The position numbers and the translations under genes are program-made. The notes under the pieces are model-generated. The model did not search any database and was not told the DNA's origin. It worked only from the letters and a program-made list of their open reading frames with translations. 64,000 bases of DNA from Patescibacteria group bacterium (GTDB lineage: Bacteria > Patescibacteriota > Dojkabacteria > J137): the NCBI GenBank assembly GCA_016861265.1, contig BOLA01000001.1:934150-998149 (forward strand), given 5' to 3'. This document shows, piece after piece, positions 10,786 to 60,906 of this stretch (the stretch's first letter is position 1; every line of letters starts with the position of its first letter).

Positions 10786-10822
10786 TTTTTTGACACTGGA
10801 AAATGTTGACAATATAACGAAA
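10786..10822 (+). promoter_or_regulatory. sigma70-like promoter (TTGACA-17nt-TATAAC)
   Basis: Seen in sequence; lies in the AT-rich stretch between the Cys-rich protein gene and the GC-rich islet. Confidence 0.35.
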
Positions 10823-11125
10823 GAGGTATATACTGGATATATATTAATATTGATTGAGTGGGCTAACCCATTAATGAGTATTAATATACTCGATCTTTGA
10901 CAACTGTATTTTACAGTTGTAGAAAATTCTTAATTAATTGTATGGCGCAAGTCTGCAATCTTTAGGAAGATTCTCTCAACTATTGCTTTAATAGTCCAAG
11001 TACTCGCTATGGGTAAATAGTTAATAAGGTTAGCTGTTTACCCGTAGTGGAGTACATCCTTAAGGGTACTCGACGCGGTAGGGCATTTGCCCGACAAATC
11101 TAGTTCGACTCTATGGAGGACAGTC

Positions 11126-12220
11126 ATGTTCAACAACAATCGTACGGCTCGTATCGTGATGCTGCTGGTTCTCGTAATCGGCAGTGTCTTCACCAGTGTG
11201 ATGAGCGTCTTCGCGCAGGATGTTGCTCCGGTTTACCCGGTCAACGACCCCGCGAAGTGCGACTTCACGTTCGCGTACAACGGCAGCGGCGGCTGGAATG
11301 TCCAGCGCTACCTTCAGGACAACGGCGATGGCATCGTTCTCGTTACGACGCAAGAAGGTTGGGGGGAAGTGACTTCGGACACTCCCTTCACCGTCTTCGT
11401 CGGCACGTGGGAAGACGCTTCGCAGTCTGTCGTGAATCAGGGCGCAGGCGTTCTCGCAGTGGCTGAAGAGAACCGTTTCGCGTATCGCTTCGGCGAGGAT
11501 GCCAAGCTGGCAGTCGGTCAGGCGCTCGTTATGGTGGCAAACTGCACGCAAGGCGTGGCAGTCGATGCCCCGGCAGCGTTCCCGCCCAACGACGCGGTTT
11601 GCGATCCCACGTTCTGGCGCGAAGGTTCGGACAATCTCGGACGCAAGTTCGTTGACGGCTCTCGCTTGCTGCATTTCGCGGCGGGCGAAGTTGACGACGC
11701 GGCTGTTGGTTCGAACGTCCCGTTCCTCGTATTTCGCGGCATGATCGATGGCACGGGCAACCTCGGCTCTCCGGTTCTGGAATACAGCTACTCCCCCGAC
11801 GGCACGACCTTCAAGTACGTGATCTCGGCGGCGAATAAGCTGGCGCAGAACGAAGGACTGATGGTCGTCTGGCCCTGCCTCAGCGGCGCTGAACACGACG
11901 GGTTTATGACCCACATCACCACCGTCCCGAATGTGGACTGGTGCGGCGCTCACGTAATGGCGGCGGGTTCGACTGAAACCGTCCCTGCCAACTGCGTGGT
12001 CTCCGGCGATGTCAAGGTCAACGGCACGGCGCTGTACGACAACGTGGAAGACACGGGGTTGGTGGTTGCCATTGGTAGCAACCCGGTTGAAATCTACGCT
12101 GAGTGGGGCGCGAGCATTTGGCCCGCGGGCACTGTCCCGCAGACCGCCCACGATGCGTTGGTTCTGACCGGCTGCGCCGATGCGCTCGGTTGCCGCGTTG
12201 TTACGGTGAGTAACCAGTAG
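11126..12220 (+). CDS. secreted hypothetical protein on a ~60% GC islet
   Basis: Start ATG 11126 preceded by GGAGGACAGTC; signal peptide …SVFAQD; composition ~2x the background GC; full-length antisense ORF (11111..12241) is a GC artefact. Confidence 0.6.
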   Translation: MFNNNRTARIVMLLVLVIGSVFTSVMSVFAQDVAPVYPVNDPAKCDFTFAYNGSGGWNVQRYLQDNGDGIVLVTTQEGWGEVTSDTPFTVFVGTWEDASQSVVNQGAGVLAVAEENRFAYRFGEDAKLAVGQALVMVANCTQGVAVDAPAAFPPNDAVCDPTFWREGSDNLGRKFVDGSRLLHFAAGEVDDAAVGSNVPFLVFRGMIDGTGNLGSPVLEYSYSPDGTTFKYVISAANKLAQNEGLMVVWPCLSGAEHDGFMTHITTVPNVDWCGAHVMAAGSTETVPANCVVSGDVKVNGTALYDNVEDTGLVVAIGSNPVEIYAEWGASIWPAGTVPQTAHDALVLTGCADALGCRVVTVSNQ

Positions 12221-12264
12221 CAGCGATCCGAACCTGACCAAAGCAATAGGCGAGAAAAGAGTAA

Positions 12265-12289
12265 TCCGGACACCCTTGTGGTGTCCGGA
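12265..12289 (+). terminator. hairpin TCCGGACAC-loop-GTGTCCGGA downstream of the islet gene
   Basis: Seen in sequence. Confidence 0.4.
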
Positions 12290-12350
12290 CTCGCTTTAAG
12301 TAGATTTCTAAAAGTCTTTTTAAAGTGAGTTAAATTATTTAAAAAACACT

Positions 12351-12626
12351 ATGGAAACTATCAAGATAAGTCTTAGCGAAACAGGTCTAAGAGTAATTGC
12401 TATAGTAGCTGTTTGTGCATCCATAATAGCTTCCACAGTGCTTTTTGTTAATTCAAGAAGTGCTGATAGAAAAGCGGAAATTATTGCAGATTGTTTTAAT
12501 GTAGCTTCGTATAGAGCAACAAACTCTGAGAATAAATCAGAAGTTAATGAACCTGTACTAAGATTCTTTAAAACATGTATGGATATAAATGGTTACGGAA
12601 GTAACTACACATTCTTAAATGAATAA
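12351..12626 (+). CDS. small membrane protein, hypothetical
   Basis: 91 aa, one TM helix; followed by a strong terminator. Confidence 0.45.
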   Translation: METIKISLSETGLRVIAIVAVCASIIASTVLFVNSRSADRKAEIIADCFNVASYRATNSENKSEVNEPVLRFFKTCMDINGYGSNYTFLNE

Positions 12627-12649: not shown

Positions 12650-12673
12650 ACCCCGCTCCAGCGGGGTTTTTTA
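12650..12673 (+). terminator. Rho-independent terminator (ACCCCGC-TCCA-GCGGGGT + TTTTTT)
   Basis: Seen in sequence. Confidence 0.75.
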
Positions 12674-12730
12674 ATAACTTCAGGTAAGTAGTAAATTTAC
12701 CTGAGCTTATTAGTCTTTGAAAGGACTCAT

Positions 12731-12829
12731 CATGAAAAAGCTCGAGAATGTAATGAGAACCTTGGCAATTGTCAGTTTGGCAGTTGTTTCTGCTGCCATT
12801 GGCATTCTATGGGTGATTGTTACACACTA
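12731..12829 (+). CDS. tiny hydrophobic peptide (32 aa) MKKLENVMRTLAIVSLAVVSAAIGILWVIVTH
   Basis: Short ORF immediately followed by a long perfect palindrome (12834..12863). Confidence 0.2.
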
Positions 12830-12876
12830 AACTTTAGGGCGGAAGCATCTTCTGCTTCCGCCCTAAAAACGCTAGA

Positions 12877-15800
12877 ATGTTAAAGATGAAAAAGAAATCA
12901 CCTTTATTCAAATTGATAAATCCTATTTGGAGTCGTAAATTTATAATTATCCTCTTTGTTCTATGGATTCTTATTTGCATAGCAAATTTTAGCCCGGACA
13001 CATTTTTAACCGGCTGGGATAATCTTCACCCTGAGTTTAACTACTCAATGAATTTAAAGAGGCTACTAACAAGTTCCTGGGCTGAGTATCAAGGTCTAGG
13101 CGCACCCGGTGCCCACTCACATGCTGCAGAAATTCCTAGAATGTTTATAGTGGGTATTTTGAACTTAATTTTTGAAACTAATCTAGTTAGGTACATTTTT
13201 ACCTTTATAACTCTGATTATTGGAGTAATAGGTATTTATTATCTGGTCAACAATATCTTCTTAAAAAGAAAAGAAAAGAAATTAAGAGAGTTTTCGGCAT
13301 TTGCAGCAGCACTTTTTTACATGCTTAATGTGGGTACTGTTCAGCACTTTCAAGCACCCTTTGAAATGTTCAATGTTCAATATGCATTACTGCCCTGGCT
13401 TATAGTACTTGCAATTAAATTTCTAGAGACAAAAAAATACAAATATTTACTATATTTTTCTGTAGTGACTTTTTTTGCTGCACCAATGGCTTATGCAGTT
13501 ATGCTATGGATTGCCTATTTTGGAGGTCTCACAATATTCTTGCTTCTAAACCTTGTATTTCAACGAAAAAAGGATTTAATAAAACCAAGTATTTTTCTTT
13601 TATCCGTCACTATTCTAGTAAATCTATTCTGGTTAGTACCAAACTTATATTTTGTATTCAATCATAGCAATTACGTACCAACTGCAAAAACGAATCTTAT
13701 TTTTTCAGAAGAAGCGTTTTTAACGAATCAGAAATATGGAAACCTGGTAGATATTTTCTTGAACAAGGGGTTCTTGTTTGACTGGCAAATTAGAAATCCA
13801 AATTACACTTTTGAACCTATTATGGGTAAATGGGATAGTCACATTGATAATCCGATTGTATTATCAATAGCCTTACTAAGCTTTGCACTTATTGTTGTGG
13901 GCATACTCTACTCAATTTATAGAAAACAGAAGTATTTAATTCCATTGATTGGTGTACTTGTATTTGCAGTTATCGTGATTATGGGTACTAATCCACCATT
14001 AGGAGGGGTTTGGGAAGTGTTAGTTGCTAAGATATCGGTGCTGCAAGAAGCAATTAGGTTCCCATTTACCAAATTCTCTATTTTATTTATATTTACTCAA
14101 ACGGCCTTTCTAGGCTTGGGTACCTATTCTGCAGCAAGATTAATTACAAAGAGAATTCACTTTCAATATGGTTCAATTTTTGCATTGCTATTTTTACTTC
14201 TAATATCTGTAGTCTATTCTCTTCCTACATTCCAAGGTAACTTTATTAATAAATCCCTTAGAATTGATATACCAAACGATTATTTTGAATTATTTGATTA
14301 TTTTAAAGATCAGAATAAGGCAGAAAGAATTGCTAACTTTCCTGTAAATACTCTTTTCGGGTGGTTTTATACCGATTGGGGGTATCAAGGATCGGGGTTT
14401 CTTTGGTATGGAATAGAACAGCCAATCTTAGATAGAGATTTTGATAGATGGTACACAACATTAGAAGATTATTACGACAGCGTAAGTCAAGCTGTATATA
14501 CAAACGATGCAAATTCATTAAAAGATGTTCTTAAAAAGTATGCAATTGATTGGATAATAATTGATGAACATGTTGTATCTTCCAGCGAAGATAACAACTA
14601 TTCTTTAAATCCTGATCTCGCATCGTCAGAAATGGCCTATAAGGAAACAAAGGCTTTGCTTGAAAAAATTCCTGGAGTCGAGCAAAAAGCGGTGTTTGGA
14701 AAAATTTATGTCTATAAAATATCGGGCCTTGATACAGATAATTCTTATGTAGATGTTCTAAATAACGATGCAGAAGGTCAGCCAATAGAAAGTAAGAATG
14801 CTTTTATCGAGGATAATTTTGGAAGAAAAAGTGAGGAAACCTACTTTGAGAAAATCTCAAACGATAATGTTAATTATATAAATAATGTATATACGCTTAG
14901 CAACGAACCAGGTAACTTACATCTTCCTCAAATTTATGATTCCGAGAAGAGTATTCCAGTAAGAATTGCAGCTCGAAAGAACAGCTCTTCCGTTAATATT
15001 AGACTAACCTATCAGATTCCTACAATATACGTAAATGACCAAAGCACTGTAAATGTAACAAAAGTAAGAAACCTTAATTTCGATATTGCAAATCAGTCTT
15101 CCAATTATTACCTAGATATTAATAATCAACAGTTACTCCTTGAGGATATAGATAATGCGTGGAAGATATACGGTTTTATGGATGTAGCATTAGATAAGGA
15201 TTTAGTAGCAAACTTATATAATATTGATGATGGAGAAAACATTACATCAAGACTAGATCTGGAAAAAGCACAAATTAATAATTGTTCTGGTTCTGCCATA
15301 GCTAAAAGCTCTTCAGTTTCTTTTGTTAATGATGTTCTTAACTTTAGAAGCACTGGTGAAAACATTTGTGTCGAATTTAAAATTAGCACCTTGAATACTG
15401 TTAATAGTTTGTATCGACTTGAGATGGAATATAAAAGTAATCAGGGAGTTATCGGGGACGCATGCATAAAATTTGACGCAGGTTGTGTTAATACAAAAGA
15501 ATTTAGGAGCGATTATCTGCCTACTTTCTGGTATAAATTTAATACTTTTGCAAAAGATGAAGACTCCAATAATTTTAGTACTGCGTTAGTATTCAATAAC
15601 TCATCTCCAGAAAATACTGCATCCATAGGTTATAGAAACGTAAAATTATATAGGTACGAATTGGATGATCAGGTGGTAATAAAGCTAGAAGATATCAAGA
15701 ACGATCTACGTTTTGCTAATACCGATATACCTATAAAACCGATAAATACCAAACTTACCTTCAAATTTATTCTACCGACTAGTAAAATTTATAATTTTGA

Positions 15801-16734: not shown

Positions 16735-16804
16735 ATTCTGCATTGCAAGTTCTATATATTAGATATATAATTGGTTCGGCCATTAATACTTGAGGAGGTG
16801 TTAA

Positions 16805-17011
16805 ATGGGAGCTAGTAGAAATACCAGAGAAATCGACTGGAACAAGGTCTGCCTAAAGATAGTGCGTGGCCAAATTATTAATGAGCGCAAAAGAAAAATG
16901 GTTCATTTGGCCGCATTCTTAGGTGGAATTGCTCTTGCTGCGATTATCGGTTTTCTGGCAACTGAGGGTATGAACTTTTTAAGAAATATCCTCGGTTTCA
17001 AGGGTTTTTAA
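16805..17011 (+). CDS. small membrane protein, hypothetical
   Basis: 68 aa; strong SD GAGGAGGTG; followed by a terminator hairpin. Confidence 0.35.
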   Translation: MGASRNTREIDWNKVCLKIVRGQIINERKRKMVHLAAFLGGIALAAIIGFLATEGMNFLRNILGFKGF

Positions 17012-17017
17012 CCCAAA

Positions 17018-17048
17018 ATAGGGGATGGCAAATTTTTCCATCCCCTAT
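17018..17048 (+). terminator. hairpin ATAGGGGATGG-loop-CCATCCCCTAT
   Basis: Seen in sequence. Confidence 0.55.
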
Positions 17049-17152
17049 TGCATTTCTATTGAGAATTAAATAAAAAAAATGTATAATTCAACGCTAGAAA
17101 TCGTTAAGTGCATTAAGGGAAAGGTAGATTAACGATGATGGTAGAAAGTGTC

Positions 17153-17224
17153 GGCCCTATCGTCTAACGGTTAGGACATCAGATTTTCAATCTGGTAATC
17201 GGAGTTCGATTCTCCGTGGGGTCA
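17153..17224 (+). tRNA. tRNA-Glu (anticodon UUC), no encoded CCA
   Basis: Manual fold: acceptor GGCCCTA/TGGGGTC with two G-U pairs, D-arm, anticodon stem TCAGA/TCTGG with loop TTTTCAA, T-arm CGGAG-TTCGATT-CTCCG. Confidence 0.8.
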
Positions 17225-19508: not shown

Positions 19509-21314
19509 TTAAAGGATTGTAAAAGTTTCGTAATTATCCAGTGGTAGTTTTATTGTGAAGGTGGAACCAACTTCTATCTTACTTTCTACACTAATGGTTC
19601 CTCGGTGTTGTTTTATTATTTCGAAGGAGATATATAGACCTAACCCAAGGCCTTCTCTTAATTCAGTATTTTCTTCTACTTGAAAGAATTTTGTAAATAT
19701 ATCTTTTAATTTACTTTTAGGAATGCCCATACCAGAGTCTTTTACAGAAACAACTGCATTTTCTTTCTCCTTACTCACAGTAACTATAATATCTCCTCCA
19801 TCGGGAGAGTATTTAATTGCATTTGTGAGTAAGTTTATGAGAACTTGTTCGAGTCTTATAGCATCACCGTGAATTTTGAGATTCTCTACTTCTTCTACCA
19901 GTCTAATATTATGACTGTCAATAAACGGACTCACTTCTTTTATAGAACTCTCAACAAGTTGATTCAAATCTAGTTCCTCCATGTGGATTCTAAGTTTTTG
20001 AGATTCTATTTTGCTCATGTCATGAAGTTCATTTACAAGGGTATTCAATTTGTCTAATTGAAAATTGATTATACTTATAAAGTCACCGTAATCTTCTTTG
20101 GATTGTGATAGTTTCTTGGTCAACAGTTGTAAGTAGCCTTTAATTACTGTCATCGGTGTTTTAAGCTCATGACTTGCAATACTTATAAACTCGTCTTTTT
20201 TCTGCTGAAGCGTTTTCTGCGGAGTTAGATCTAACATTAGGCATAGTACATGCTCATCGTTAATCATTACTCCAGAGAGGAATACAGAAACTTTGTGTCC
20301 ATCTTTATGATAGTACTCCTTTTCGAATACAGTCATATAACCCTTCTCCTTTAGTTCATCAACTTTTTGTTGATCTATTTCTTTATATTCTTTTGGAGTT
20401 ATTTCTAACCAGCTCAAACCGTTTTCAACAAATTCTTCGGGGCTATAACCAAGCATCTCAAGAAATTCATCGTTTGTTTCAATAAATTCACCTTGAAGAT
20501 CCGCAAGTGCCATACCAACAACATTGGAGTCAATTAGTCTTGAAAGTATCTCTTGGCTCTTAATTAATTCATCCTCATATTTTTTTCTGTCGGTTCTGTC
20601 CCTAACCGCTAGAACAATTTCTTCGTACTTACCTTCTTTAACAAAATTTATAGCAATCTCTGCATAAAAAACTGTCCTCCCAATAATTAATTTATGCTCA
20701 AACTTTACAGGATTATCAGCATTCACAGATGCTAGGGCTAATCTTAAGCTTTGTTGAAGATCGTAGTTATTGTTCCAAGGGTCAAGATCAAAAATACTCT
20801 TATTTACTAACTCATTAGTTTCAAGATTAAGTGAATCAGCATAGCTCCAATTTGCTTCACGAATTTTTCCGTTTCTATCAAGAATCACTACCATTGTAAA
20901 AATACTATCCATTACTCTACGCAATCTTTTGGTAGTCTTCTTAAGGTCTTCACTGGTTTTTTTTAGCTGCCTTCTATTATTAGAGAAAGCACTAACAAAT
21001 AAGGCTATTAAAAGACTACCAAATACAAAGGCGAGTATTCTACTGAAGTTTGTGTTTGAATTTAAGCCTAGGCTACCTATCGGTTCGATATATAAGTATG
21101 TAGCAAGGATTGTGGAGTATACCAATGCTACTAATCCACTGATTAATCCTCCTATAGTACTATGTATGACTATAAAAAGAGTCAATAAGGAAAAAGCTTG
21201 TAGATTAACCCTGCCATCAAGAAAGTATATTCTTACTAAAAAGAATATACTTAAAGTAATTATTGGCAGTGCATACTGTAATAAAAAAGTATTGAATCTA
21301 CGCTTTTTCCTCAT
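19509..21314 (-). CDS. sensor histidine kinase (TM + PAS domains + HisKA + HATPase_c)
   Basis: 601 aa; H-box ASHELKTPMTVIKGYLQLL; C-terminal N/G1/G2 boxes (NAIKYSPDGG, DSGMGIP, GLGLGL). Confidence 0.85.
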   Translation of the reverse strand: MRKKRRFNTFLLQYALPIITLSIFFLVRIYFLDGRVNLQAFSLLTLFIVIHSTIGGLISGLVALVYSTILATYLYIEPIGSLGLNSNTNFSRILAFVFGSLLIALFVSAFSNNRRQLKKTSEDLKKTTKRLRRVMDSIFTMVVILDRNGKIREANWSYADSLNLETNELVNKSIFDLDPWNNNYDLQQSLRLALASVNADNPVKFEHKLIIGRTVFYAEIAINFVKEGKYEEIVLAVRDRTDRKKYEDELIKSQEILSRLIDSNVVGMALADLQGEFIETNDEFLEMLGYSPEEFVENGLSWLEITPKEYKEIDQQKVDELKEKGYMTVFEKEYYHKDGHKVSVFLSGVMINDEHVLCLMLDLTPQKTLQQKKDEFISIASHELKTPMTVIKGYLQLLTKKLSQSKEDYGDFISIINFQLDKLNTLVNELHDMSKIESQKLRIHMEELDLNQLVESSIKEVSPFIDSHNIRLVEEVENLKIHGDAIRLEQVLINLLTNAIKYSPDGGDIIVTVSKEKENAVVSVKDSGMGIPKSKLKDIFTKFFQVEENTELREGLGLGLYISFEIIKQHRGTISVESKIEVGSTFTIKLPLDNYETFTIL

Positions 21315-21355
21315 TTTTATTCATATCTATTCTATATTCCGGATTATATCAGGCT

Positions 21356-44482: not shown

Positions 44483-44710
44483 GAAATTCTATTATTCTAT
44501 AACGCTAATCGGGTTAAATCACAGTTTATAATTCCCAAAAAAGCAATTGAACGATATAATATTAATGGCTCTGTAGGGTATACAAAAAACTCTAACAATT
44601 CAAATTTTTAGGTCCAACGATTCTTCTAATCCGTGGGTTAGATGTAAGTTGGCAATAGTGGTAACCGAGAGGTTTCCTTACATACTCTACAGGCCGTGTT
44701 TCTCTTTCAG

Positions 44711-44783
44711 GCGGATGTAGTTCAATTGGTAGAATGTTTCCTTCCCAAGGAAAAGGTCGCGAGTTCGAGCCCCGTCATCCGCT
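44711..44783 (+). tRNA. tRNA-Gly (anticodon CCC)
   Basis: Manual fold: acceptor GCGGATG/CATCCGC perfect, D-arm GTTC/GAAT, anticodon stem TTTCC/GGAAA with loop TTCCCAA, T-loop TTCGAGC (one T-stem mismatch). Confidence 0.7.
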
Positions 44784-44810
44784 TTATATATTCTTTTTTT
44801 CAAAAGCCAG

Positions 44811-45107
44811 TTACATTAGGTTAACCTTAATTTTCAACAAAACCTTAACAGTATCTCCTTTATCCAAAAATTCTGCTTCTCTAACCGTCTTTTTTATAGG
44901 TACAAGATACTGTTCATCTTTGGGGAATATAGCGGTAGTAAATTCAGTGTCTTCTATTGTTACCGTAACAGGAATGGTTCCCCAGCCATAGGTAACAAGA
45001 TGAGAAATTGATTTTATGTCCTTACTCTGCTCTTTAGGAACTGCTACAAAGTAGAATGGTGCGGGGCCACGCCAGTAAATTATGGTTCCTGAGAATTCAA
45101 TATTCAT
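44811..45107 (-). CDS. DUF1905-family small protein
   Basis: 98 aa; …WRGPAPFYFVAVP… matches DUF1905. Confidence 0.5.
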   Translation of the reverse strand: MNIEFSGTIIYWRGPAPFYFVAVPKEQSKDIKSISHLVTYGWGTIPVTVTIEDTEFTTAIFPKDEQYLVPIKKTVREAEFLDKGDTVKVLLKIKVNLM

Positions 45108-45284
45108 ACATTAAATTATTTATATTTAATTATTATAGTTCTTATTGTGTAATATTATTTACTGTAAAGTTTACTTAAATTAACAATATATTATTATTAC
45201 ATAGTAATCTATTTACATATTCAAATTAACTGGTATAATCATTGTTGGTTTTAATTAACCAGTCCGTTGCTTGCAGGAACATCG

Positions 45285-45455
45285 ATGTAAGGTAAAAAAT
45301 CTTACACCGGTGTTTCTGAGGCATGTCCCTGATGAGCTAGAGTTGACACCTCCTTAGGTCGCACGACCCCAAATGGATGTGTCTTAGGGACACCGGACCT
45401 TGTAGAGAGATCGCACTTGTTGCGGTCTCTCGAACCACTTTATGTCCATGATAAA
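45285..45455 (+). ncRNA. candidate structured RNA / cis-regulatory leader (multi-hairpin, ~50% GC) upstream of CDS 45461
   Basis: Nested helices seen: TGTAAG/CTTACA; TGTCCCT…AGGGACA enclosing GACACCTCC/GGATGTGTC and GGTC-GCAC-GACC; 11-bp hairpin GAGAGATCGCA-CTTGT-TGCGGTCTCTC at 45405..45431. No match to a known family could be established. Confidence 0.3.
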
Positions 45456-45460
45456 AAGAG

Positions 45461-46723
45461 ATGTCACTTGAACTAAGACAAGAGGATATTCAAACTCAGA
45501 ATTTATCACTTCCATCGGAACCTTCAGCCTTTCACGCCATTAATGGTGTCGCAATACGCTTATTAAGAGAAAAGTATCAATTTTTAATTCAGGAGTTAGT
45601 AACTATCTTATTGGATCAAAATGATTTAAGAAGTTACGATGCACTTGCACAGGAGCTTATACCTCAGGAATACGATCAGAATTCTGTGGTTGCTAAGAAA
45701 ATAATACACCTGGCTGCTCAAACAGCCGCTCAACAATATAACGAATCTGCAGAGGAACCGACTATAGATTTATACGCAAGATCGTGCAGGGTAAAGTCCT
45801 TTACGAATATAAATCGACGAAGTGGTCACACCATGCTTGAGGCATTAGGTAGAAAGCCATTTTCACTTGAGGAGATTGGTTTTATTCTAAACCTTATAGC
45901 CAATCCAGATTTTCAATGGCACACTGGCAGTCATGCTGGTCAACCAGATTGGTGCAAGATTACAATTGCGTTTAATAATAAGTTTGCTGATCAAAGAACA
46001 GCGAAGTCGTTATCTGATCAGATTAAGACAATGCGTTATAACGGTGATTCAAGGTTACAAACTGCACAGGAACTCGAACTTGAAGAACAAGAAGAAGAAT
46101 CCTCAATTTTTTATATAGACAGGTTTCTTCAAAAGGTAATTATTGAAAAGGAGCTTTACGAAAGATTTGCAAATCAAATTGCATTTATTCTTAACGATTT
46201 ATCAGATTACAGAAGCTATCATGAAATTGTGAGAGACTTAATGCCAGAAGAATATTCCTATGGTTATAATGCAGCAAATCAGCTGATATCTATGATTGTA
46301 GACCTTATAAGATTTGACTCCTCAATTGATTTTAATGATGATTTGTTTCAACAACGAAAAATAGTTATAAATGTTCATAGAAAGCGACTTCTAGATCAGG
46401 CAGGCGCTATGCTCGAAAGACAAGGCATAATTAGATTTTCCGAAGCTGAGTTTAGAAGATTCATGGAATTAAGAAGGCTTTGTGTTCGAGAAGACGGTCC
46501 TCAAGTTGGTAGAACCGATTATATACAAGTAGCTAGGCAGCTTAATATGGAATTCCATAACGGTGACGAAGTAAGGACTGCAGAAAAGCTTTCCGGACTT
46601 GTGAGAGCCTATAGGCAAAATTTTAAGAAAAAACCCTACATGTACCCAAATATAGACGATTTCAATATTCCTGTAGAAGAAATAGTAAATGCTTACTACT
46701 TGCCCCAAGTAACTGAACAATAG
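45461..46723 (+). CDS. hypothetical protein with internal tandem duplication
   Basis: 420 aa; two ~65-aa repeats (…LVTILLDQNDLRSYDALAQELIPQEYDQN… / …IAFILNDLSDYRSYHEIVRDLMPEEYSYG…). Confidence 0.5.
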   Translation: MSLELRQEDIQTQNLSLPSEPSAFHAINGVAIRLLREKYQFLIQELVTILLDQNDLRSYDALAQELIPQEYDQNSVVAKKIIHLAAQTAAQQYNESAEEPTIDLYARSCRVKSFTNINRRSGHTMLEALGRKPFSLEEIGFILNLIANPDFQWHTGSHAGQPDWCKITIAFNNKFADQRTAKSLSDQIKTMRYNGDSRLQTAQELELEEQEEESSIFYIDRFLQKVIIEKELYERFANQIAFILNDLSDYRSYHEIVRDLMPEEYSYGYNAANQLISMIVDLIRFDSSIDFNDDLFQQRKIVINVHRKRLLDQAGAMLERQGIIRFSEAEFRRFMELRRLCVREDGPQVGRTDYIQVARQLNMEFHNGDEVRTAEKLSGLVRAYRQNFKKKPYMYPNIDDFNIPVEEIVNAYYLPQVTEQ

Positions 46724-46813
46724 AAGCCTTATAGTAAAAATATCCACAAAGTTTTTGATAATTATCCACTGTTTAACTATAATGAATTATCAATTAGTTA
46801 TTAACAAATAAAT

Positions 46814-55730: not shown

Positions 55731-56141
55731 ATGAGTCTGCTGACAGTTAATTACAGCGGTTCTGCTATGGCTCAAGCGCTTCCCAAGCCAGTGGGTCATG
55801 GCAATCCTCGGATAATGCTTTCCGAGTTTGGTAGTGAGGTGGAAACCGAGCTGATCAAGGCGCTGGGAAATCAGACCATTCTTCCTGTGGGCATTATAGG
55901 TACTAGTGGCGCACAGCCGTTTGGTGTAAATGCCCGCAATCGTGGAAGTGTTGAATTGCTTTTGGAACTGATTTCCCCTGTGGAGCTAGATTCCGAGGGT
56001 GTTCATGAACTTGCCGTTATCATGAGGCGTGCTGTATTGGACCTATTCAATACGCCACGTTATCAGGGCGGCAGTTATGAGCAGCTCGAGGTTCTGTCTA
56101 TGGTGGTTGTTCACAGGGGTGTATTAGTTTCTAAAGGCTGA
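55731..56141 (+). CDS. hypothetical protein on a GC-rich islet (~50% GC)
   Basis: 136 aa; extended -10 TGTTATAAT and SD AAGGAGG upstream; hairpin GCGGGAACTGC-AAGC-AGTTCCCGC at 56157..56182. Confidence 0.45.
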   Translation: MSLLTVNYSGSAMAQALPKPVGHGNPRIMLSEFGSEVETELIKALGNQTILPVGIIGTSGAQPFGVNARNRGSVELLLELISPVELDSEGVHELAVIMRRAVLDLFNTPRYQGGSYEQLEVLSMVVVHRGVLVSKG

Positions 56142-56182
56142 CAACCAACGAGCTTGGTGCGGGAACTGCAAGCAGTTCCCGC

Positions 56183-60763: not shown

Positions 60764-60906
60764 CTTGCACCTCCGTGCAACTTTTAAGAACCTCCTAGCA
60801 TTGGCATAGGATTAGTAGGAGTTTATCTTCTTAAAGTATTACAGGCATTGTAATGGGATACAAAAACCTAAGGATATTTTTTAATAATTGGGTAGTGGTG
60901 TCCATT

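Follow-up and report, generated by a model that had tools for sequence, protein, structure and literature searches.

The leader, its promoter and its orthologues

We analyzed a 64,000-nucleotide stretch of DNA (the window) from contig BOLA01000001.1 of a Patescibacteria group bacterium, in which a structured leader precedes an open reading frame (ORF) for a 420-aa protein at 45461-46723 (+). A model that had read the letters alone (the sequence-only reading) described a GC-rich structured RNA downstream of an AT-rich spacer, and suggested that it could be a riboswitch-like or attenuator element or an independent small RNA (sRNA). The structured RNA is confirmed. The GC content rises from 0.11-0.17 across 45100-45249, where the spacer 5' of the leader is extremely AT-rich, to 0.43-0.54 across 45250-45449, and the minimum free energy (MFE) of 45245-45465 (+) is -86.3 kcal/mol, compared with -56.2 ± 4.4 kcal/mol for dinucleotide shuffles (z -6.84; 0 of 200 shuffles as low). 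The minus strand of this region folds more weakly (z -4.45). When the whole 64 kb was scanned on both strands in 220-nt windows with correction for GC content, the leader ranked fifth of 2320; its strong folding is unusual within this genome, but not unique.

Upstream lies a sigma-70-type promoter (45212-45239, +), with the -35 element TTTACA (45212-45217), a 16-nt spacer with TG and the -10 element TATAAT (45234-45239). It matches the consensus at 11 of 12 positions and has an extended -10 in addition. TATAAT is invariant across the orthologous loci, and TTTACA or TTGACT is found 16-18 nt 5' of it in loci L004, L007, L026 and L025. Judging from the position of this promoter, transcription probably starts at about 45246. 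The structured RNA spans 45246-45431 (+), and among the orthologous loci about 185 nt of a whole leader of 212-253 nt are structured. The structure itself was thus seen correctly by the sequence-only reading, but the start it gave, 45285, falls within the first long hairpin.

The 420-aa product has just six homologous clusters among 5.8 billion proteins, with 95-57% identity. An exhaustive HMMER search with the family profile detected two further syntenic orthologues, one of 372 aa (L025) and one of 215 aa with a single module (L026-L029). Contigs L001-L012 are syntenic downstream of the leader: the Myb-like gene (as the gene of the 420-aa protein is called here; see below) is followed by ssb, by a gene for an Exo_endo_phos membrane protein and by one for a SpoU methylase. 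A homologous leader is present 5' of all syntenic orthologues, in their 420-, 424-, 372- and 215-aa forms. In total, nine leaders can be distinguished, which come from about seven lineages and, as far as the searches show, are confined to this gene; the leader of L001 is near-identical to that of the window. L014, which is the same as L004, comes from a metagenome-assembled genome labeled Candidatus Saccharibacteria, and from this label we infer that the leader-bearing clade is Candidatus Saccharibacteria.

A covariance model (R1) built on the main-clade leaders gave scores of 106-118 bits for the main-clade loci, 39.8-40.6 bits for L026-L029 and 25.4 bits for L025; it found a single copy at each locus and no further one in the 64-kb window. 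R1 found no match 5' of the genes for two non-syntenic distant relatives of the protein (L030 and L032), where the sequence is unstructured (z -0.65 and +1.67). Degenerate-pattern scans of GTDB species genomes, JGI metagenomes and IMG/VR returned only known loci (L014 = L004 and L023 = L009) and chance matches in high-GC coding DNA, and no leader was found by blastn against phages and plasmids. A protein-based search for related loci returned nothing, and a profile protein search added no full-length homologues. Locus L033 (P0008), a 1.3-kb contig without the leader, was unusable, and P0013 was not included.

What lies on the other side of the leader differs from locus to locus. In the window, tRNA-Gly(CCC) (44710-44784, +) and a DUF1905 gene (44811-45107, -) are located directly 5' of the leader promoter. 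In every other orthologous lineage this neighbor changes, being a 204-aa ORF or a gene for UDG, CorA, DUF1801 or others. Because of this variation, the interval from tRNA-Gly to the leader looks like a rearrangement hot spot.

Compensatory changes maintain two exclusive folds

The leader can form two folds that are defined by the partner of a central strand, S2 (CGGUGUUUC, 45308-45316). In fold A, S2 pairs with the upstream strand S1 (GGAACAUCG, 45276-45284); in fold B its partner is the downstream strand S3. Fold A forms a three-way junction of helices P1, P2 and P3 and is the MFE structure in all eight leaders that were folded. The junction is closed by P1, in which GUCCG (45262-45266) pairs with CGGAC (45394-45398); a closing helix of 5-14 bp, with differing sequences, is predicted in eight of these eight leaders. 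P2 is a 24-bp hairpin (45268-45293/45299-45323), in which S1:S2 lies beneath the Pa hairpin (UGUAAGGU/AUCUUACA, loop AAAAA, 45286-45306). Pa fits both folds and stacks on S1:S2 in fold A. P3 (45324-45332/45384-45392) has an apical part in which CACCUCC (45347-45353) pairs with GGAUGUG (45375-45381).

In fold B, S2 and the adjoining strand X (45317-45328), which together form the shared strand, pair with the downstream competitor at 45375-45395, composed of X' (45375-45386) and S3 (45387-45395; GGGACACCG). The partners of X' and S3 in fold A are CACCUCC, UGUCCC (45324-45329) and P1. The result is a rod of 21-22 bp, which was proposed de novo by RNAalifold from a MAFFT alignment of seven leaders. 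It cannot coexist with S1:S2, P1 or the CACCUCC hairpin, and it leaves S1, the 5' strand of P1 and the segment CACCUCCUU unpaired. These two mutually exclusive, co-conserved folds were missed by the sequence-only reading.

Both folds are maintained by compensatory changes in the nine leaders. In the seven-leader MAFFT alignment, 97.4% of the cells of the fold-B helix are paired, with five pairs changed on both sides and eight on one, and S1:S2 is paired in every cell. Columns 62, 107 and 197 of alignment A2 change together, reading A/U/G in the clade of the window and U/A/U in the other clade, and both alternatives stay paired. Alignment A7 covers all nine leaders, including two outgroups, with the segments joined by spacers. 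Here all 81 cells of S1:S2 are paired, and four of its nine pairs have changed on both sides; for the S2X:X'S3 helix, 95.2% of the cells are paired, and 11 of the 21 pairs show such double changes. In slid controls 27-44% of cells were paired, and for most measures none of 500 shuffle controls reached the observed values. Pa, which varies in length from 8 to 18 bp among the orthologues, has 91% of its cells paired, and five of its eight pairs are changed on both sides. P1 was left out of the column-wise counts, as its register differs between clades. The segments of A7 were picked by eye, which biases it toward the structure being tested; the MAFFT alignment and the RNAalifold result are free of that bias. 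The most divergent leader, L025, has segments AGUGUACCG, CGGUACAUU and GUGUAAUCG that are far from those of the main clade, yet its S1:S2 is paired at nine of nine positions and its fold-B helix has 25 bp with one bulge.

If both folds are under selection, nucleotides with two partners should be invariant and those with one partner should covary, and this is what is observed. The invariant positions of the main clade (CGGUGU of S2, GG and GUG of X', and CAC and CC of CACCUCC) are the nucleotides that are paired in both folds. Those paired in a single fold covary; for example, the two positions between GG and GUG face a CU internal loop in fold A and pair with X in fold B. What is more, the fold-B helix has G.U pairs in 46 of its 189 cells. 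In an RNA of the minus strand these would turn into A.C mismatches, and for a DNA-binding site they are meaningless. This favors an RNA read from the + strand, and disfavors a minus-strand RNA or a DNA operator. A check of conservation and covariation in orthologous loci had been proposed along with the sequence-only reading; it was run, the element clearly passed it, and a functional structured RNA of the + strand is thereby supported. Two exclusive helices, each with covariation, are the mark of a bistable or alternative-helix riboregulator, and the leader has both.

The two folds differ in predicted stability. Fold A is the more stable one in the eight leaders, with a margin over fold B of 3-14 kcal/mol at 37 °C and of 1-18 kcal/mol over 4-60 °C. 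A hybrid that combines S1:S2 with X:X' was rejected, being 5-15 kcal/mol above the MFE.

Upstream of P1, the MFE structure also includes a small 5'-terminal hairpin, P0 (UGGUU/AACCA, 45246-45261, +). The other leaders have a 5'-proximal hairpin of unrelated sequence in its place, and P0 may act as a 5' stabilizer of the mRNA.

Terminal hairpin, anti-Shine-Dalgarno-like segment and downstream protein

The 11-bp hairpin that the sequence-only reading placed shortly before the start codon is present. This hairpin, T (GAGAGAUCGCA/UGCGGUCUCUC, loop CUUGU), occupies 45405-45431 (45405-45415/45421-45431, +), ends 29 nt before the ATG at 45461 and is followed by CUUUAU (45438-45443). All leaders have a hairpin of 10-17 bp at this place, and four of the eight pairs counted are changed on both sides. 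The segment from S3 to the ATG, which holds T, has a folding energy of -17.6 to -24.6 kcal/mol. A U-run begins 1-2 nt past the extended stem in L007, L008, L012 and L025, and 3-7 nt past the stem in the window and four others. The distance from T to the ATG, 21-45 nt among the loci, leaves too little room for a normal separate promoter.

The canonical identities and read-outs that were looked for are absent. With Rfam 15 at the gathering threshold, the whole window contains only two matches, both tRNAs (tRNA-Glu and tRNA-Gly), and the leader matches none of its families; at E<=10, region 45100-45550 and four orthologous loci gave only noise (snoRNA, miRNA and viral CRE models) far below threshold. 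The sequence-only reading had noted a CUGAUGAG string without a complete hammerhead core, and it was right on both counts. The string is found at 45329-45336 (+), and no hammerhead model matches at E<=10. Among the orthologues it is kept only in the near-identical L001 and is replaced by unrelated sequence in L004, L007, L008, L009 and L012, as for a chance match that is no part of a ribozyme. Sequestration of a Shine-Dalgarno (SD) sequence has no target here, as there is no conserved SD 5' of the ATG to mask. Nor is a leader peptide conserved: an AUG within X that is invariant in the main clade (A2 columns 116-118) opens reading frames that run for just 2-5 unrelated codons, or 14 in L026; L025 lacks this AUG, and the invariance of the AUG in the main clade is explained by its pairing with GUG. 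An RNA thermometer was rejected, since the energy model, the only basis for this test, predicts no crossover between the folds over 4-60 °C in the eight leaders. As for a metabolite riboswitch, no invariant unpaired core of an aptamer survives in L025. The invariant blocks of the main clade sit in helices with two alternative partners and are replaced in L025 by compensating sequences, and T does not compete with the putative aptamer as an expression platform would. The leader therefore fails the tests for Rfam families, the hammerhead, the riboswitch aptamer and platform, the leader-peptide attenuator and the thermometer.

The segment CACCUCCUU (45347-45355, +) is identical to the 3'-terminal anti-SD of 16S rRNA and no other CACCTCCTT occurs in the 64-kb window. 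Fold A pairs it with 45375-45383 (CAC-CU-CCUU/AUGG-AU-GUG), and fold B leaves it unpaired in the apical loop. The seven main-clade leaders have it without variation; in L026 it becomes CGCCUCCGU, and L025 does not have it in this form. The nine-base identity with the 16S rRNA 3' end (...CACCUCCUUA) is clear; however, the leader copy lies in a hairpin of an mRNA leader without any helix-45 context, it is lost in L025, and the downstream gene has no conserved SD that it could mask. Much of its invariance is accounted for by its partner, GG..GUG, which has two alternative partners of its own. We treat the resemblance as unexplained and do not take it as a mechanism.

In the window an SD-like motif precedes only 4 of the 41 ORFs of at least 200 aa, and the other 37 have none. 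Many ORFs of the window have a TATAAT 7-20 nt before the start codon, as for mRNAs with a short leader or none. Some genes, most of them short, nevertheless have a near-perfect AAGGAGG(U) at canonical spacing, examples from the SD survey being at 16793, 27415, 55715 and 58484 (+) and at 60774 (-).

The 420-aa protein was said in the sequence-only reading to be a tandem duplication of a module of about 65 aa with no recognizable family. It is duplicated, and its halves share 25% identity over 169 residues (E 2e-8). The unit, however, is about 190-200 aa long, as shown by the length of this alignment and by the L026 lineage, which has a single 215-aa module in the same genomic place. Each unit of about 200 aa consists of a helical sub-domain and a putative Myb/SANT-like three-helix domain, the latter at about residues 131-194 (45851-46042) and 323-387 (46427-46621). 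The protein gave no Pfam match at E<=0.1 and no PHROG or PADLOC match. Its AlphaFold model is all-helical, and with a pLDDT of 71 and a pTM of 0.30 it can be used at the level of domains only. HMMER detected 74 relatives, mostly single-module proteins of 200-260 aa, several of which have weak matches to Myb profiles and one of which (P0017) has a significant match. The lack of a recognizable family is thus true only in part: the evidence, including the predicted model, points to a remote Myb/SANT-like nucleic-acid-binding family in which each unit ends in a three-helix domain of about 60 aa. The closest known systems are Myb/SANT-like proteins (Pfam Myb_DNA-bind_6 and Myb_DNA-binding, with the folds of Zeste, Sap1, Reb1 and TRF1). 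Unlike in these, each domain is fused here to a helical N-terminal sub-domain of about 110 aa with no relatives detected outside the family, and the whole unit is duplicated.

The number of modules in the Myb-like gene varies among close lineages, which have a single 215-aa module (L026:3001-3648), a 372-aa form (L025:1746-2864) or, apparently, two adjacent ORFs of 148+ and 226 aa (L033:1-1202). Wherever this could be checked, the leader is kept despite the varying number.

In five of the related loci, the Myb-like gene and ssb are separated by an insert of about 300 nt (L007:5264-5669, L008:2347-2755, L009:5264-5654, L012:1881-2284 and L025:2865-3234). It has its own promoter (TTTACA-N17-TATAAT), several conserved hairpins and a canonical terminator (GAGGGGGG...CCUCCCUC, then U5-6), with a fold z of -4.64, a mean column identity of 81% and no Rfam match, and it looks like a second, unrelated sRNA gene. 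It is absent from the window, where only the ssb promoter part is kept (46731-46813). The insert was rejected as a trans partner of the leader: its complementarity to S1 is no better than that of shuffled controls, and prediction of a whole-length duplex was uninformative.

Other parts of the window are also highly structured. The top outlier of the whole-window structure scan is 10800-11090 (+), an AT-rich region behind a TTGACA motif that folds very strongly (-94.4 kcal/mol, z -6.70) and has no Rfam match. It lies directly 5' of a 377-aa ORF with a TTG start (11087-12220), which has a mirror ORF of 376 aa on the opposite strand (11111-12241); neither has a Pfam match. The GC-corrected folding energy is 3.3-4.6 standard deviations below the window mean at 12266-12485 (both strands), 12651-12870 (+), 16831-17105 (+), 55936-56155 (+) and 21121-21340 (-). 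Among these structured outliers, one precedes the 1285-aa ORF at 12877, and another separates this ORF from tRNA-Glu at 17153. Non-coding stretches that are both long and structured seem to recur in this genome.

Possible roles of the leader

The observations presented here indicate that the leader is probably a previously undescribed RNA switch. In our preferred explanation, to which we give about even chances, it is a lineage-specific, cis-acting, bistable 5' leader RNA of the Myb/SANT-like gene upstream of ssb, a three-strand toggle that is possibly autoregulated by the protein of that gene. A role in cis is favored by the linkage to one gene, which is invariant despite the changing upstream neighbors. 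Fold A would form first, during transcription, and be the default ground state. Fold B would need an input, either a bound factor or the occlusion or removal of S1, because fold A is more stable, there is no crossover, X:X' is absent from the MFE structures of truncated transcripts and the hybrid fold is unfavorable. The likeliest factor would be the putative nucleic-acid-binding protein encoded directly downstream; being duplicated, or as a dimer, it could have two sites in the near-identical S1 and S3. It is common for proteins that bind nucleic acids to bind the leaders of their own mRNAs; together with the fact that the element travels only with this gene and with the near-identity of S1 and S3, this favors autoregulation, which we infer purely from these considerations. 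The read-out could be read-through of T, or the stability or processing of the mRNA.

Several results weigh against this explanation. The nine leaders represent only about seven independent lineages, and two deep splits account for the majority of the double changes in S1:S2. In no leader is fold B predicted as the ground state, and the MFE structures of truncated transcripts lack X:X' in seven of eight leaders, L026 having it in part. No conserved pairing ties either fold to T, to the start-codon region or to a downstream partner. The strands of T form only weak duplexes with the upstream leader (-6 to -13 kcal/mol), at a place that differs in each sequence, so no antiterminator was found, and the freed 5' strand and the freed CACCUCCUU are without a conserved partner in the next 190 nt. 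T itself is only terminator-like, and a scan for consensus terminators calls none here. In most loci an AT-rich, -10-like hexamer lies 3' of T, from which a proximal promoter could give a near-leaderless mRNA. Finally, Myb/SANT domains usually bind duplex DNA, which does not favor autoregulation through RNA.

The strong promoter of the element and its stable 3' hairpin followed by a U-run, near-canonical in L007, L008, L012 and L025, could instead belong to an independent sRNA of about 185-200 nt, extending from the conserved promoter to T. The ORF would then be expressed from a weak proximal promoter or by occasional read-through, and the toggle would expose S1 and CACCUCCUU in trans. The -10-like hexamer between T and the ATG agrees with this, as do the very short leaders that seem usual in the genome, the second promoter-to-terminator RNA-like unit that follows the same gene in related loci, and the subset of genes in the window whose strong AAGGAGG(U) sites could pair with CACCUCCUU. 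However, the linkage to one gene is invariant, at only 21-45 nt from T to the ATG, though the upstream neighbor changes; the stable fold A exposes no conserved single-stranded seed; CACCUCCUU is lost in L025; and the U-run is displaced from the stem in five leaders. We consider an independent sRNA unlikely. As for the suggestions of the sequence-only reading, a functional structured RNA of the + strand was borne out and the canonical hallmarks of a riboswitch or an attenuator were not found; the data do not decide between a riboswitch-like or attenuator element and an sRNA.

A metabolite or ion riboswitch of a new class, with a ligand in the junction or in the apical region shifting the balance between the folds, would account for the conserved three-way junction, the downstream hairpin and the two alternative folds, and in the main clade some invariant nucleotides (the CU internal loop and the UU of CACCUCCUU) are left unexplained by pairing. 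No known class matches. We regard such a riboswitch as improbable, since L025, whose S1, S2, S3 and apical region all have other sequences, has kept nothing but the pairings, so that no candidate for a family-wide ligand pocket is left. Also, the terminal hairpin does not compete with the putative aptamer, the downstream gene encodes a DNA-binding-type protein, neither an enzyme nor a transporter, and helices of 21-27 bp would be hard to switch with the energy of ligand binding.

Slightly less probable still is a constitutive structural or processing element, the duplexes of which would be RNase III sites or 5' stabilizers, fold B being the form of the processed mRNA after cleavage of P2 has removed S1. 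P2, which has 24 bp in the window and reaches 27 bp in L008, and the fold-B helix, with 21-25 bp, are all long enough for RNase III, and the proposal accounts for the conservation of fold B even though it is never the ground state of the full leader. On the other hand, the cleavage is only putative, and RNase III normally cuts both strands of P2, S2 included. A processing element would still imply regulated fate of the mRNA, and it overlaps in this respect with our preferred explanation.

A bolder proposal combines roles in cis and in trans: a new class of factor-responsive RNA switch specific to Saccharibacteria, which belong to the candidate phyla radiation (CPR), whose rod-like state would expose a perfect copy of the anti-SD. 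It would act in cis on a Myb-like regulator of an ssb/nuclease locus of DNA-uptake type, and it would also serve as a trans-acting decoy for the small number of mRNAs with a strong SD, in a genome that is otherwise largely SD-independent. We give this proposal little credence.

The three 9-mers S1, S2 (inverted) and S3 could also be thought of as a DNA-level operator array, with three 9-bp sites for the Myb-like protein downstream of its own promoter. They are near-identical, one of them being inverted and the others direct, and domains of DNA-binding type are present in the product. However, nearly every difference between the copies is of the G.U type when read on the + strand, the complementarity extends to 21-25 bp, and Pa, P1 and T covary too, which is not expected for protein-binding sites in DNA; an operator array is very improbable. 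A hammerhead or other self-cleaving ribozyme, for which the presence of CUGAUGAG is contradicted by its lack of conservation and by the absence of any Rfam ribozyme match at E<=10, and a functionless GC-rich fold due to chance, which is excluded by the z-score and the covariation, have a negligible probability.

The closest formal analogues of the bistable leader are the PyrR-dependent pyr leaders of Bacillus subtilis (anti-antiterminator, antiterminator and terminator), in which pairing of strands 1:2 competes with that of 2:3 for the central strand. They resemble the leader in the switch being set by a protein encoded in the operon, which is only proposed here, and in the hairpin and U-run that follow the leader. 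They differ in that the third tier is missing here, as S3 does not overlap T, in that our competing helices are near-perfect duplexes of 9-25 bp, and in that there is neither a PyrR-type binding loop nor an Rfam PyrR match. Like the leader, the expression platforms of riboswitches (aptamer P1, antiterminator and terminator) are located in the 5' UTR and have a three-way junction and exclusive helices that covariation shows to be conserved; the leader, in contrast, has no family-wide invariant pocket, no overlap with the terminator-like hairpin, no metabolic gene and no Rfam class. In the E. coli rnc and pnp leaders (RNase III-processed and autoregulatory), the cspA 5' UTR and the hok mRNA, a long structured 5' UTR has extended duplexes and its conformers decide the fate of the mRNA. 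The leader described here has no sequence or Rfam similarity to any of them, no crossover over 4-60 °C, no small toxin ORF and no SD to sequester.

The principle of alternative helices is already known; what is new is an RNA family whose toggle lacks the canonical coupling to a terminator or an SD. Being narrowly distributed, with nine leaders in a single clade, the family is of limited general importance, but it provides a clean natural case of evolution keeping two incompatible RNA folds. To our knowledge, almost nothing has been reported on RNA-based regulation in Patescibacteria (CPR), whose reduced genomes have few recognizable regulators and lack most known riboswitch and leader families. 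If the adjacent Myb/SANT-like protein does drive the switch, this would assign a function to an uncharacterized family of bacterial proteins, and would place a regulatory module beside ssb and a membrane nuclease, genes that are relevant to the scavenging of DNA by these epibionts.

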